Shown: positions 1 through 28,513 of the stretch, one piece after another
How positions within the stretch are numbered: position 1 is the first letter of the stretch
Layout: each line of letters opens with the position of its first letter
Source: an uncultured Pseudomonadota bacterium
Lineage (GTDB): Bacteria > Oederibacteriota > Muellerivitia > Muellerivitales > Muellerivitaceae
Reading direction: 5' to 3'
Assembly (NCBI GenBank): GCA_963770835.1
Contig: CAVYRH010000015.1
Coordinates: 1 to 28,513 of the forward strand
Length of the DNA stretch: 28,513 nucleotides
Program-made: the position numbers

Positions 1-3000
1 TTGTGTAAAGCACGACTCCACCGCAGTTTTCCCGCAGTAGAAGTCATTAGCCAATGAAATTGGCGGTTTTGGGAGGACTCCATCCCCTGAAAATGTTCGC
101 TAAAGGCATTATAGGGCTTCAAAAATATAAGCAAAGCCAATTCACTGCCGATAGCTGGATAACCTGCTTAGCGGGCTTCTTGCTATGAAAAGGTTATTAA
201 AGAAAGGAAATTCTTGCAGAGTAGAGCACTGGCGCGATGGTGTGCAGAGGGTTCCTTGATCTGTTTCCCCGTTTCCGGTTCCGTGCCCCAACGAGGTTCC
301 CTCATCACTTCGTTTCCAGCGCCCCCTCGTCAAACCGTACGTGACCTTTTCGATCATACGGCTTTCCGACAACCTCTCCTCCGGCGGCTTTACAGGTTCG
401 ACTTCCCCCTTGGCCGCTCGGCATAGTGCCTGTTGTCAAAGGCCTCGCGCTTTGGTACTACAGAGTTGTTGGCCCTTTTGGGGCATGCTCCAGCGCCTAC
501 CTTCTTTGAGACACATGGTTGAAGCAGGGGTCCTTCCCTCAGGGTGGTTTTGTTGTCCACCCCTTCATCGGTACTGTGACCCCCTCCGACTTCCTCCCAC
601 CCTTGCCTCTTTTCGGTTTTAGCCTTATAGCGGCAAGTCTTTTGGCGGGTAGGATCTCCCAGCTTGCTTGCATAGCCTTTCCAACATTCCGTTCCCCATA
701 CTCCGGAGGACTTGCCCCGCTTGCTACCAGATTCTTCAGCGGGATCGTGGCCTTCGCCAGTAGACACGCGGCTCGGCATCCCCTTGCACCTTTCGGTGTC
801 CCATTCACGAAGCGGCAGGATTCACTTGATGTTGCGGACTGCTGGATTGTTCCCTCACTAAATGAGGTTTATGACCCCGTTTCGGGCAGGACCTCTCGAT
901 CCTACGCCGGGGGCTGACTTCCAGGCTCTCTGGTGATTACCTGGTCAGGACTTGGGTTGACCCTCATCGGCCTACTCCCTCACCTGCTGGCTCTGCAAAC
1001 CCTCCTCTGGCACGATGTCCACGATGGGTCCCCGTCGTGGACAAGTGCATTCAGAGGCTGTAGGCCGGGAAAATCTTTGACAATTCGGCCAAAAATTCTT
1101 TTTCCTTGTCGCTTATATTTATCCATTTTTTCCCGTTCCAAGAAAACACGCCGAGACCCTGCAGCTCATAATGCACATTTCCGGGTCCGAGCTGACGATA
1201 TCCTTCGCCATAGACCACGATATCCCGGTGGCCGTTCTTTTCCAGGTCTTTCCCGAAGGAGTGGCTAAAATCATAATAAGTAATAAAATCGCTGTTTAAT
1301 TTGTAATCCCAAACTTCAGTGCTGGGAGAAAAACCGAACTTCATGTCCCCGCCGAGCCCCTGCGCAAAAATCCGATAGGTATCATCACCTATTTTTTCAA
1401 TTTCAATTCCATCCACCTCATTCGCGAATTTGCCCCTTTCCTTGGCCGGCCTTGCGTCCCTTCCGTAGGTTCCCGACAACAGCACAATGGCTTCTGTCGG
1501 TTTCATAAGATCGATAAAGTAAATGCTTCTTCCAAACCATACAAAGCCGAAGGAACCCCTTTTGCGAACCCATTTTTCCCGGATCATGTCAAGGCCTTCT
1601 CCCTTCGACCAACCCAGTTCTTGAAGCTTCTGGTAATCCTCCTTCCATTTCTTAACGTCTTTTTCATCAATGTCAGACTCGTCACTATCACGTTCTAAGG
1701 CAAGATCCAAATTTTCAAAAAACGTGAATAGATCAAAAGGGAGTTTTACGCGTTTAATCTTATTGATCTCGGCGGGATAAACATGGTCATCGTGATCCCC
1801 GAGGCTTGGTCGGGGAGTGGGCCATACCAATTCGACTTTTGGCGTCCAATCTTCACTCAGCGATGGAGTTTGAGTTTGGGCACATAAAAAGGTGGGTAAA
1901 AGAAGTACGGCCTCCATCAGGAAAAGGACTATGGTTTTCATAAAGGCCTCTTTCGTGGACAACCTAAAATCCACTCCCGAAATATTTCAATTGCAGACAT
2001 AATTCAAGTTATTTTGTTTGTCCACGACGGGTCCCCGTCGTGGACAGCTTACCTTAATGAACGACATGGTCGATTTAACTATTTACTCTTATCCACGTAG
2101 TCGATTTCGACGTTCTCCCAACGGTCTTTCTTCTTTTCAAAGAGGGTCGCGTAATGGTCGTAATCAGCCCAAGTATTTTTGGACAATTTGTCATAGTTCG
2201 ACACCAGAACCTTTAAATGCGTTTCATCCACCCATACTAAATCGATCGGTTCGTAATGGGCATCGTACCCCGTCAAAATCATGATGTTGGCCGGATTATC
2301 TTCCAAATAATTCCTTAGTAAATAATCAACTGGATGGAATGGGGTTCCTTTTCGGCGAAGATTCAGATAAGTCTGTCCATCATTGAACATGCTCGGCCCA
2401 TATCGAAAAAAGATCGTGGCGATCGTACCGTTTTGGGGTGAGGTCCTTTCGACTTTGACGTCGTGAGGCATATATGGCTCATTCAGGATGGCCGGGATGG
2501 AGTACCAAAGATTGATCCCGACGAAAAGCCCTAGAAACAATATGCCAAGCACACGTAAGACCCGAGCCTTAAGATTTATCGCCTTCCATCGACATAAAAA
2601 GCACAAACCGACAGGCCATAAAACTATTAAAAGATCAAGGCAAGCCTTTTGGACCACCGCCGGATTGGAATTCCAGAAAGAATCAAGAAAAAATGACGCA
2701 ACTAAACTTAATAGGATTGCCAGCCCAATTAAAACCAGAAGACAAATTCGTACGATCTTTTTTCTTCGGAAGATAGGTTTCCAGACCAGAAGAGCGAAAA
2801 GAAAAAAGCCAAGAAGTGATTGAGCGCCAAATAAAATATAGTGGTCAGTCATAAGATCTAATCCTTACTTATTGGATCACTGTTTTTCTCTTTGGGTCGA
2901 CATCCAAGCTGTCCACGATGGGTCCCCGTCGTGGACAGGTGTTTCGTCAATCCCATAATTCATGTTAGCGATCATTCGCAAGGAAAATTTTAACTTATTT

Positions 3001-27000: not shown

Positions 27001-28513
27001 AGCGAAGGGCTTTTTGAACCAAGTCATCATCCAACACAACATTCGTGCGCATTTTTATACACCTCCTTATACACCATCCTAGTGTATCGAAAGCCCGCCC
27101 GTCAACGAACGTTGTCCGTTCCATCGGGGCTTAATCATTTCACCCTGAGCGGCTAACAGGCCCTGGTAGCCCAAAGTCAAATAATCAGTACCACTGATTG
27201 TCCACGACGGGTCCCCGTCGTGGACAACACTTATACCTAGATTACGCTTGGTCGTGAAGAATCCAAGTAATTAAACTTAGAATCCTCAAAAGCTCTCTCC
27301 AAAGCTTCAATCCCTTTTTCCTTCGCAAAGCCCAATTCTTTCTTTGTTATCGGTACTAGCCAATAACAACGTACATCCTTTTTCTCAAATTGAAAATTTT
27401 CCAATTTAGGACCATCTAAATAGGGCAACAAAATAAAGCCATGGCGACAATCGGAATCAGGTAACCAAGGACGACCAAAATCGACAGTGTGATGAAGATT
27501 TAGTTGGGAGCCGGTTAAGTGGTAATGAGTAATAACCGTCAACAACTCCACATGCAGTTCCACTTGTTGGCTCGGGGAGAATAAATGTAATTCGATACCA
27601 TTTTGTTGAAGTGTTTCCGACATTCCAATAGTGGCGTAGGTCCACATTTTTCTTTTTCCAGTTGGGGCAAATTCAATAATGGAAAAGTCGGCGGGCAATT
27701 CTTTATAAGGCCCCAAGGATAATCTTTCGCAGGCTTGTTCAGGCCTCCACAAAGTATTTGTCCGACCCCAATTGCTTTCATAATGCTGGATAAGAAGTTT
27801 GGAATAATTAGAACTGGAAATTCGAAGCCTCCTCATTTAGGCAACCAAATCGAGCACTTTCGTTGTCCATGACGGGTCCCCGTCGTGGACAGACTTAGGA
27901 ACGATTAAATATCAAACTAGTCCCTGCACACATCAAAAATAAACCAAGTACCCATTTCCACATTTTCGAATTGAATTGAGATTTATCCGTAGGGAAAAAC
28001 AGTTTTCCGATTTTACCTTCGTTGAGATTTATTACTTTATCTCCAAAAATCAAAACCAGGGCTCCCAAAACGACGAGTAATAAACCTCCGACATATTTTG
28101 CTATTCGCTCGTCGATGTAAATGAGCCAAGTCGCCAGACCCATTCCACCAAAAATCAAAACCAGGATTCCGATGAATTGAATAACCGCGATGAGAGAAGT
28201 TTTAAGATTTGAATTCATTTATTGCCGCTCCTTTACCTACTAAGGCCATTCCTCAAGTTCAATTTTCTCCTACGGTCAGCCTTTTGGTTTCGTGGATTCA
28301 CGCTGCTATTCGTGCTCGAGGCACAAGATAAGAATTCGATAATCCTGAGGGAAGCCACCACCTGTCCATCGTGCCTTTAGGCACAGCTAAAACTCGTGGT
28401 CATTCCTAAGGGTTCGAATCACGAAACATAGGCTGAAACCTCTTTAGAGCGGGCCGATAAACTTCCTTTCGGACCAACATAGTCCAAAGGTGAATCAAAA
28501 GCCTGTGAGCCAT

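Follow-up and report, generated by a model that had tools for sequence, protein, structure and literature searches.

The window, by which we mean the whole 28,513-bp stretch of DNA analysed here, is divided by copies of a 28-bp palindrome, and the question that it raises is what this palindrome does and which enzyme, if any, acts on it. We find 17 copies between 1016 and 27891, of which 16 share one orientation and the one at 9933 is ambiguous; 15 are matched at three or fewer arm mismatches, compared with 0 in 100 shuffles, and position 15469 is not a site. The genome (G000) holds 85 sites on 15 contigs at up to six mismatches, the same count as in the initial annotation, while reversed and complemented site controls give none in the same genome at up to seven; a PWM scan retrieves 89 (control 0), and a group II intron splits about ten further sites beyond the 85. 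The site is found in 29 of the 32 genomes of the class (reversed control 0) and in none of the 67 other genomes of the phylum, in line with the class-wide distribution described initially; viral contigs match neither the site nor the recombinase discussed below. On the comparisons given here, the palindrome is quite probably the recombination site of exchangeable cassettes, with a serine recombinase of 275-283 aa that lacks zinc ribbon and coiled coil as its likely enzyme. Coordinates are collected in Table 1.

Table 1. Sites, cassettes, repeats and other features of the window
Feature	Position	Strand	Remarks
Internally deleted group II intron, targets right end of site	213..1013	-	Rfam RF02003 at 827-959, RF00029 at 216-366; further copies
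28-bp site (13-GA-13); deleted group II intron starts 2 nt beyond	1016..1043	-	
Cassette, 307-aa ORF, no Pfam match	1044..2018	-	100% over 1020 nt in G012 (other genus); identity stops inside site
28-bp site, consensus	2019..2046	-	
863-bp cassette, 257-aa ORF	2047..2909	-	Also on C3, C12, C25 beside other neighbours
28-bp site	2910..2937	-	
Cassette(s): 980-aa protein (pro-kumamolisin activation and PA14 domains), 117-aa ORF	2938..6437	-	
28-bp site	6438..6465	-	
Cassette, CHASE2-domain protein	6466..7346	-	
28-bp site	7347..7374	-	
Cassette(s): alpha/beta hydrolase, GNAT acetyltransferase	7375..9932	-	
28-bp site, symmetric centre, orientation ambiguous	9933..9960	.	PWM 32.1 vs 31.7
37-bp CRISPR-type repeat, fourth of array	11464..11500	-	
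37-bp repeat, third; 1228-bp spacer to fourth with 402-aa ORF	12729..12765	-	
PemK/MazF-type toxin preceded by 79-aa ORF; immediately after site 13431	12773..13353	-	
28-bp site within 2279-bp repeat spacer	13431..13458	-	
28-bp site, same 2279-bp spacer	14727..14754	-	Spacer start is a cut cassette piece, 90% like C11:112625-112934
37-bp repeat, second	15045..15081	-	
673-bp spacer: TPR gene piece, reverse orientation	15082..15754	+	
37-bp repeat, first, 22 nt behind cas2	15755..15791	-	
cas2	15814..16149	-	PADLOC Cas2 models, E 1.9e-7
cas1	16146..17186	-	96-100% identical in four genomes, three other genera
28-bp site heading cas1-cas2	17231..17258	-	Five contexts: same right arm, but other left arm and other DNA upstream
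Cassette, 660-aa ORF (weak fn3 match)	17259..19323	-	
28-bp site	19324..19351	-	
28-bp site; flanking cassettes 209 aa and 234 aa	20033..20060	-	
28-bp site	21004..21031	-	
28-bp site	23939..23966	-	Cassette 21032-23938 holds a repeat-protein gene in two frames
28-bp site; flanking cassettes 464 aa and 302 aa	25414..25441	-	
28-bp site	26405..26432	-	
VapB/PIN toxin-antitoxin cassette	26433..27198	-	Also on C17, different upstream neighbour
28-bp site, consensus	27199..27226	-	Run X3 contigs diverge at both ends
Cassette, SUFU-domain protein	27227..27863	-	
28-bp site	27864..27891	-	

Each site consists of two 13-bp arms around a 2-bp centre, GA, which is kept in 415 of 425 distinct sites. The 11-6-11 layout given in the initial annotation can also be read into the site, but the arms run to 13 bp, and position 16, adjoining the GA, is conserved at only 90%. 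Judged by its sequence, 13-GA-13 is serine-recombinase geometry, and the asymmetry of the GA would permit same-direction joins only. The site is constant across the class. Left-arm and right-arm variants are unlinked (odds ratio 0.99 in 342 independent sites), and these sites show no consistent compensatory changes, so that we rejected an attC-like hairpin model. A role as a −35 box was also discarded, because 358 flanks hold no −10 box at 16-18 bp past the site end.

Cassettes have been exchanged at these sites, and the junctions fall within the site itself. The 58 inter-site segments shorter than 5 kb (median 969 bp, median GC 0.47) lie between sites of the same orientation in 56 cases; 30 hold one ORF and 11 two, and 81 of 101 ORFs are co-oriented according to a crude ORF caller, which agrees with the initial description of low-GC, mostly single-gene cassettes between direct sites. 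Arrays of such units, of ∼1 kb, occur at 27 loci. The same cassettes are found beside different neighbours, as had been noted for the 863-bp cassette among others, and in different genera; their junctions map between positions 10 and 19 of the site, and whole cassettes occur between two new neighbours. Among 29 site pairs with a common downstream cassette, which are not independent, 10 being cas1 copies, there are 12 differences at right-arm positions 19-22, where 57 are expected, and 32 at left-arm positions 6-10, where 22 are expected; among 25 pairs with a common upstream cassette, the left-arm positions show 7 differences (19 expected) and the right-arm positions 37 (49.5 expected). The crossover is bracketed to positions 11-18, which a 6-bp tyrosine core fits too; linkage does not narrow it, since neither positions 11-13 nor positions 16-18 are significantly linked to an arm. 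A crossover in mid-site means that each cassette carries two half-sites; hybrid sites are present inside arrays, and there is one site class overall. Among the Logan contigs compared (contigs only, best share 0.19, with uncovered parts proving nothing), no excised circle, empty site or excision joint was seen at any site.

The candidate enzyme is encoded outside the window, at C17:12078-12905 of the same genome. Its 275-aa product comes from the only PF00239 gene (E 2e-22) and only PF07508 gene found in G000, the catalytic-motif residues R16, S18, D87 and R88 are invariant, and its structure model matches serine integrases in Foldseek. The gene ends 14 bp from a site; the initial annotation had considered tyrosine recombinases and overlooked it. 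In all 12 class copies whose 3′ end is preserved (7 genomes), the gene is followed by a site, or an intron-split site, at 8-37 bp and in one fixed orientation, whereas none of 21 loci of longer relatives has a site within flanks of ∼1.5 kb. The protein ends right after the recombinase domain, without zinc ribbon (PF13408) or coiled coil. We rejected the view that it is a long integrase that has been split or disrupted. The stop codon lies before the site, and recombination there therefore cannot lengthen the gene; all 19 protein clusters with 68-100% identity have lengths of 275-283 aa; dS is unsaturated in 7 of 10 pairs, and these give a dN/dS of 0.08-0.16; and a separate C-terminal half was found neither in G000 nor in ten recombinase loci. 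Of the 32 class genomes, 5 have the gene intact and 2 others carry fragments of it, and neither protein nor profile queries retrieved it from the site-rich G002, G005, G008 and G025 (36, 38, 29 and 44 sites; 89-99% complete). It could itself be a cassette passenger.

Other explanations of the exchange place the activity elsewhere. The initial annotation proposed the housekeeping Xer (g02543) as the likely enzyme, the cassette site then possibly being a reused or second dif. Its orthologue distribution is as stated there, 31 of 32 class genomes, against 0 of 67 others at E≤1e-40; Xer is moreover the sole tyrosine recombinase match in G024, a genome with 11 sites, the 11-6-11 reading would suit it, and in six genomes the distance between arrays and xer is 12-48 kb. 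Yet Xer has a dif-type site of its own, an AT-rich 11-6-11 palindrome directly upstream of the gene (C11:156013-156040), in 27 of 28 class loci that have upstream DNA. This palindrome lies at the switch in coding-strand bias, the apparent terminus. The arms of this site vary between genomes while staying palindromic and have no sequence in common with those of the class-constant cassette site, and the arrays are distributed over both replichores; we thus consider Xer highly improbable as the cassette enzyme, and the lineage's dif is separate from the cassette site. A scan with the canonical proteobacterial dif gave weak matches only.

Some other sporadic enzyme, with the serine recombinase as passenger, is unlikely. 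Of six phage-like integrase paralogues one lies ∼700 bp from a site, but three adjoin tRNA genes, and we rejected the group on that account, as we did an RIT trio and two other integrases with no site nearby. IS110 copies, with their bridge recombinases, adjoin sites, but insert at the outer end and not in the crossover window. Single-strand folding, as for an HUH transposase on a folded single strand, could account for replichore polarity and intron targeting; the arms, however, lack the covariation that a hairpin needs, and 167 of the 425 sites have at least three arm mismatches. Very unlikely, in our view, is that no dedicated enzyme exists, the cassettes being shuffled by homologous or slippage recombination between 28-bp repeats, e.g. 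following the uptake of DNA, with the palindrome retained because a protein binds it. Most class genomes do lack an intact serine recombinase, and, as the longest run of unvarying bases lies in the middle of the site, crossovers would show there even without an enzyme. This leaves unexplained why the site is tied, at a fixed 8-37 bp, to a single recombinase clade that is under purifying selection, why the asymmetric centre is nearly invariant and why whole cassettes occur between two new neighbours. A further point against it is the missing −10 box past the site end.

In the mechanism that we favour, a serine recombinase dimer would sit on the two 13-bp arms, two sites would be cut around the central GA, and half-sites would be swapped by subunit rotation; with same-direction joins only, direct-repeat sites would release a cassette as a circle, which could re-enter at any other site. 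The recombinase domain of the LI integrase has a 13-bp contact area (PMC3783163). Lack of the coiled coil would abolish the attP/attB distinction, so that every product would again be a usable site; removal of the coiled coil from the LI integrase makes it promiscuous as to site type and inefficient at intermolecular recombination (PMC5499577), and cassette integration may therefore need a helper. The enzyme would sit at the downstream array end, beside mobile-element genes, and arrays without it would be served in trans or be frozen, like integrase-less attC clusters.

One cassette, cas1-cas2, is shared across genera and heads a second system, made of 37-bp repeats. It had been counted initially among the site-bounded cassettes; a 28-bp site does stand at its 5′ end, and only there, but the 37-bp repeat array behind it was overlooked. 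As in a CRISPR adaptation module, cas1, cas2, a leader and exact repeats are all present, the first repeat directly behind cas2. The neighbours of cas1 differ between loci. Unlike those of such a module, the spacers (n=22, 213-12,145 bp) are neither short nor uniform, and their ends fall within genes and IS elements; no PAM was seen by eye at their sources, and PF07282 (Cas12f/TnpB-type zinc ribbon), the sole effector family searched, has 0 matches genome-wide in G000; the genome contains no ordinary CRISPR array.

The arrays resemble integrons and integrase-less attC clusters in being co-oriented, low in GC and mostly single-gene, in holding toxin-antitoxin pairs, in having one site per junction and in often lacking an enzyme. 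Site orientation mostly follows replichore polarity, as it is tied to replication in 25/30 sedentary integrons (PMC5371416). On contig C4 of G009, where 13 stretches were sampled, the coding bias alternates, and some sites run contrary to the orientation that dnaA would predict. The sites are targets of group II introns and of IS110, the latter at the outer end; integron sites, too, are targets of group II introns and of IS110/IS1111 elements (PMC3001079). In contrast to integrons, no IntI was found, in agreement with the initial annotation: the best TIGR02249 score in G000 is 44.6 bits against a cut-off of 265, and 0 of 32 class genomes match at E≤1e-40, a search in which control genomes also gave no match. 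The site is only 28 bp, its arms assort independently, and it is split between two cassettes, whereas attC has covarying hairpin arms that travel whole with the cassette. Integrons carry attI and Pc upstream, beside the integrase; the candidate enzyme here lies downstream, facing the cassette genes, and so cannot act as the source of a promoter of the Pc type.

Large serine integrases (LI/A118, Bxb1, phiC31, SPbeta) share PF00239, PF07508 and the central-dinucleotide geometry, and the candidate enzyme is up to 60% identical to 500-aa family members; among the best 120 proteins listed, none of at least 483 aa is above 60%. The present enzyme differs in lacking PF13408 and the coiled coil, and in place of attP and attB (40-50 bp) there is one symmetric 28-bp site class with ∼100 sites per genome. 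Staphylococcal SCC composite islands also have tandem cassettes between direct-repeat sites and Ccr serine recombinases, but their units are of tens of kb at one chromosomal site with full-length enzymes, as opposed to ∼1 kb units, 27 loci and a shortened candidate enzyme here. Acinetobacter pdif modules (dif module islands) form linear multi-module arrays split by 28-bp sites (PMC12907356). Those modules are flanked by oppositely oriented copies (C/D and D/C) of the host dif. Here the sites are direct repeats unlike the dif-type site. The initial view that the system is distinct from both integrons and pdif modules is upheld. A literature search, conducted mostly outside subscription journals and without supplements, found no description of the cassette system or of the 37-bp-repeat system.

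We lean slightly towards a broader reading, in which this would be an integron equivalent assembled from unrelated parts: a trimmed large serine integrase, cofactor-free and bidirectional, a symmetric 28-bp site, and a class-wide cassette pool that crosses genera, one cassette being a kilobase-writing Cas1-Cas2 that also captures pieces of the cassette array. The candidate enzyme may, within that same reading, be likened to a 275-aa serine counterpart of Cre/lox. Since integron screens use IntI and attC, a serine-recombinase version with a different site would be invisible to them, and cassette arrays, replication-linked orientation and site-specific parasites could then arise twice. The enzyme is roughly half as large as the serine integrases that genome engineers employ, its site is short and defined, and its longer relatives number in the thousands; it would test whether the catalytic and recombinase domains suffice for recombination, and whether the coiled coil is a mere direction switch. 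The cas1-cas2 cassette, with its source-matched spacer ends, would join two undescribed capture systems in one array.

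A recount of the source genome (G000), the class genomes and the other genomes of the phylum bore out the site and array figures of the initial annotation; its gene-cassette reading stands, while its assignment of the cassettes to the Xer recombinase does not. The window, contig C15 of G000, holds 15 matches to the 28-bp cassette site at up to three arm mismatches, as compared to none in 100 shuffles, and looser matching finds 17, of which 16 point in one direction and one is ambiguous. G000 has 85 sites at up to six mismatches and 89 by PWM (none in reversed controls), together with 10 further sites interrupted by an intron. 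Same-direction sites stand at both ends of 56 of the 58 inter-site segments shorter than 5 kb, which have a median length of 969 bp and a median GC of 0.47; 81 of 101 ORFs in the segments are co-oriented, and cassette stop codons mostly lie 3–75 bp ahead of the next site. The site is present in 29 of 32 class genomes, in none of 67 other genomes of the phylum, and in at least 154 metagenome stretches; no viral contig searched had a match. At all 17 loci on the large contigs of G000, the sites run with the majority coding strand, as compared to 74.6% of other genes (chance 0.746^17 = 0.007). Site direction in the relative G012 is uniform on contigs C4 and C5, minus on C2 up to 1,202,653 and plus from 1,476,170 (dnaA is at 1,459,832), and flips on C1 across the xer region; exceptions occur on contig C4 of G009 and as isolated inverted sites in both G006 and G026. 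The simplest cause of this polarity is selection for co-directional transcription.

The crossover was mapped among 428 distinct sites gathered with their flanks from G000, from loci of its relatives and from metagenomes, using pairs with one flank in common and the other different, and leaving out sites followed by the start of an intron or IS110. Among the 29 pairs with a common downstream cassette, which are not independent (10 come from cas1 copies), right-arm positions 19–22 differ 12 times as compared to 57 expected from unrelated site pairs, and left-arm positions 6–10 differ 32 times as compared to 22; for the 25 pairs with a common upstream cassette, the respective counts are 37 as compared to 49.5 and 7 as compared to 19. 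Each right arm thus moves with the cassette that follows it and each left arm with the one before, and the exchange falls between site positions 10 and 19. The window cassette at 1044-2018 is matched at 100% identity over 1020 nt in G012, a member of another genus, and the match stops at site position 18. In other samples, contigs break off or part from the window sequence at sites (e.g. window 27197/27228 and 17258), but neither an excised circle nor the omission of a cassette was observed.

Two group II intron lineages and one IS110 target the site: the first lineage inserts between positions 11 and 12 (10 of 12 copies), the second 2 nt beyond the right end of the site (16 of 18 copies, counting full, variant and split sites), and IS110 adjoins the site end in three of four copies. 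This is a likeness to attC, a target of group IIC-attC introns and IS1111-attC elements (PMC3001079, in excerpt). An attC-like folded single strand is nonetheless disfavored as the substrate, because left- and right-arm variants of 342 independent sites show no linkage (odds ratio 0.99) and compensatory arm changes are not consistent. A role of the site end as a -35 box was likewise rejected.

Xer (g02543, the only Xer-type housekeeping gene of G000, on contig C11) and the cassette site are both class-wide, and their co-distribution reflects only that. An AT-rich 11-6-11 palindrome, the dif-type site of the lineage, lies immediately 5' of xer (C11:156013-156040), and recurs upstream of the gene in 27 of the 28 class loci with upstream DNA (the other 2 of the 30 loci had no such DNA). 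A dif site next to a lone recombinase gene is the XerS/XerH arrangement. The coding-strand bias of C11 flips beside xer (77 of 83 ORFs plus on the left, 80 of 90 minus on the right), which would mark the terminus. The outer arms of the palindrome vary among genomes, in several variants across the class that keep their complementarity, whereas the cassette site is constant across the class and has no arm sequence in common with it. A separate dif-type palindrome with unrelated arms at the apparent terminus makes Xer very unlikely as the cassette enzyme. A second dif-type palindrome (G000 C12:15228-15255, 10 of 11 arm pairs), near tRNA-Ala on a 29-kb contig, possibly belongs to an element using Xer. 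Six genomes have an array locus 12–48 kb from xer: G000 (C11:93884-112917), G002, G005, G006, G008 and G012.

The cassette-site arms are complementary over 13 bp, and the central GA is present in 415 of 425 sites; this 13-2-13 layout is serine-recombinase geometry, which led us to search for PF00239 and PF07508. Each has one match in G000, and both fall in a single gene (C17:12078-12905, 275 aa); its stop codon is 14 bp from the site at C17:12920. Five N-terminal or internal fragments were not scorable for adjacency; in all 12 class copies with a 3' end, from seven genomes (one each in G000, G010, G013 and G030, two each in G012 and G028, and four in G006), a site begins no more than 40 bp from the end of the gene in constant relative orientation, that of the G013 copy being interrupted by an intron. 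No cassette site was found in the flanks of longer relatives, ∼1.5 kb of which were covered (0 of 21 loci). The clade comprises 19 clusters at 68–100% identity, every protein having 275–283 aa; among the best-ranked relatives compared, the longer ones (≥483 aa) are at most 60% identical and mostly have PF13408. In the seven of 10 pairs whose dS is unsaturated, dN/dS is 0.08–0.16. The AlphaFold model (mean pLDDT 82) best matches serine integrase structures, and no separate zinc-ribbon half was found in G000 or at ten recombinase loci. The recombinase domain has a contact area of 13 bp, and the zinc ribbon sits on attP positions 16–24 (PMC3783163, in excerpt), so an enzyme free of the zinc ribbon would need ∼14 bp per half-site, with which the cassette half-site agrees. 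LI integrase lacking its coiled coil is promiscuous as to site type and inefficient between molecules (PMC5499577, in excerpt). Counting against a serine recombinase, the gene is intact in five of 32 class genomes and fragmentary in two others, and searches of four site-rich class genomes of 89–99% completeness did not find it; moreover, the crossover window 11–18, which the linkage analysis did not narrow, is also compatible with a tyrosine core. On this evidence the short serine recombinase is probably the cassette-moving enzyme.

The candidate recombinase would bind both site arms and bring two sites into synapsis, followed by cleavage at the central GA and exchange of half-sites. The asymmetric centre would restrict joins to one direction, as would give the same-direction arrays observed. 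Direct repeats would excise a cassette as a circle carrying one hybrid site and able to enter any other site; half-site hybrids do remain inside arrays. The recombinase gene closes an array on its downstream side and faces the cassette genes. Further array ends are marked by copies of the gene that are truncated at the 5' end and have each kept a site. Upstream of the G000 recombinase are ArdC, RadC-like and toxin-antitoxin genes, and an ArdC homologue also occurs near the short recombinase of G006 and of G013, suggestive of a mobile-element platform.

Features located in the window, in G000 and in relatives
Feature	Location	Strand	Remarks
cas1-cas2 with 37-bp repeats	window 11464-17186; G000 C3:48634-102028, C3:383301-400905, C16:21525-37475		
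Fluoride riboswitch	window 31-96	-	RF01734
Beta-lactamase-family ORF	window 9992-11470	-	PF00144; begins inside last 37-bp repeat; probably 5'-truncated
Repeat protein, ~40-aa repeats, EPTP-like	window 21430-23506	-	two overlapping frames, a frameshift or sequencing error
Group II introns at sites (examples)	G000 C3:106043-107995; window 213-1013		
ArdC, RadC-like and toxin-antitoxin genes	G000 C17:7984-11557		
5'-truncated recombinase copies	G006 C6:158404, C8:42239, C28:107693; G028 C2, C41; G012 C1 (L036)		
Phage-like tyrosine integrases	G000 C1:7319, C2:210367, C5:233290, C5:241383, C10:70275, C26:882152		six paralogues, 55-80% identical, three beside tRNA genes
RIT-like trio	G000 C10:6741-10013		

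Nested among the cassettes is a second system, in which a 37-bp repeat behind cas2 (27 copies in G000, 23 exact) forms an array with 22 same-direction spacers of 213–12,145 bp; G000 yielded no ordinary CRISPR array. Several spacers start or stop at arbitrary points inside cas1, IS elements or cassettes that exist uncut elsewhere in G000, or inside other genes; no PAM or common motif was seen flanking spacer sources. The repeat is present in six of 32 class genomes, and four genomes from three other genera have a cas1 that is 96–100% identical. This cas1 stands behind a 28-bp site with the window's right arm in G009 and G012, but not in G006 and G007; the module thus came into arrays through exchange at the 28-bp site. 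It has no conserved 3' boundary. By inspection of 10 loci of relatives at 58–72% Cas1 identity, five have at least two repeats with long spacers, four have one repeat and one has none; several Cas1 relatives with the same layout are recorded as Patescibacteria. An 885-bp spacer (G000 C3:399838-400722) is ∼100% identical to the interior of a 971-bp spacer of G012, another genus (L041:8894-9778), reversed and 43 bp shorter on either end. One cas1 copy (G000 C3:47239-48276) has an in-frame TAG, and a 5'-cut copy lies inside the spacer at G000 C3:60758. A perfect tandem repeat inside another spacer (G000 C3:97310-98280; 50-bp period, ∼6% GC) may be an assembly artefact.

The cassette system works in the manner of an integron, yet its integrase, site type and platform layout all set it apart from integrons; IntI was not found in G000 or in the class genomes, the class search having run without a positive control. 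It differs from pdif modules, as described in an excerpt of PMC12907356, in site identity and orientation. Its candidate enzyme is a serine recombinase, as are large serine integrases, but not a full-length integrase. The literature searched, mostly outside subscription journals, held no description of the cassette system or of the cas1-cas2 system with 37-bp repeats.
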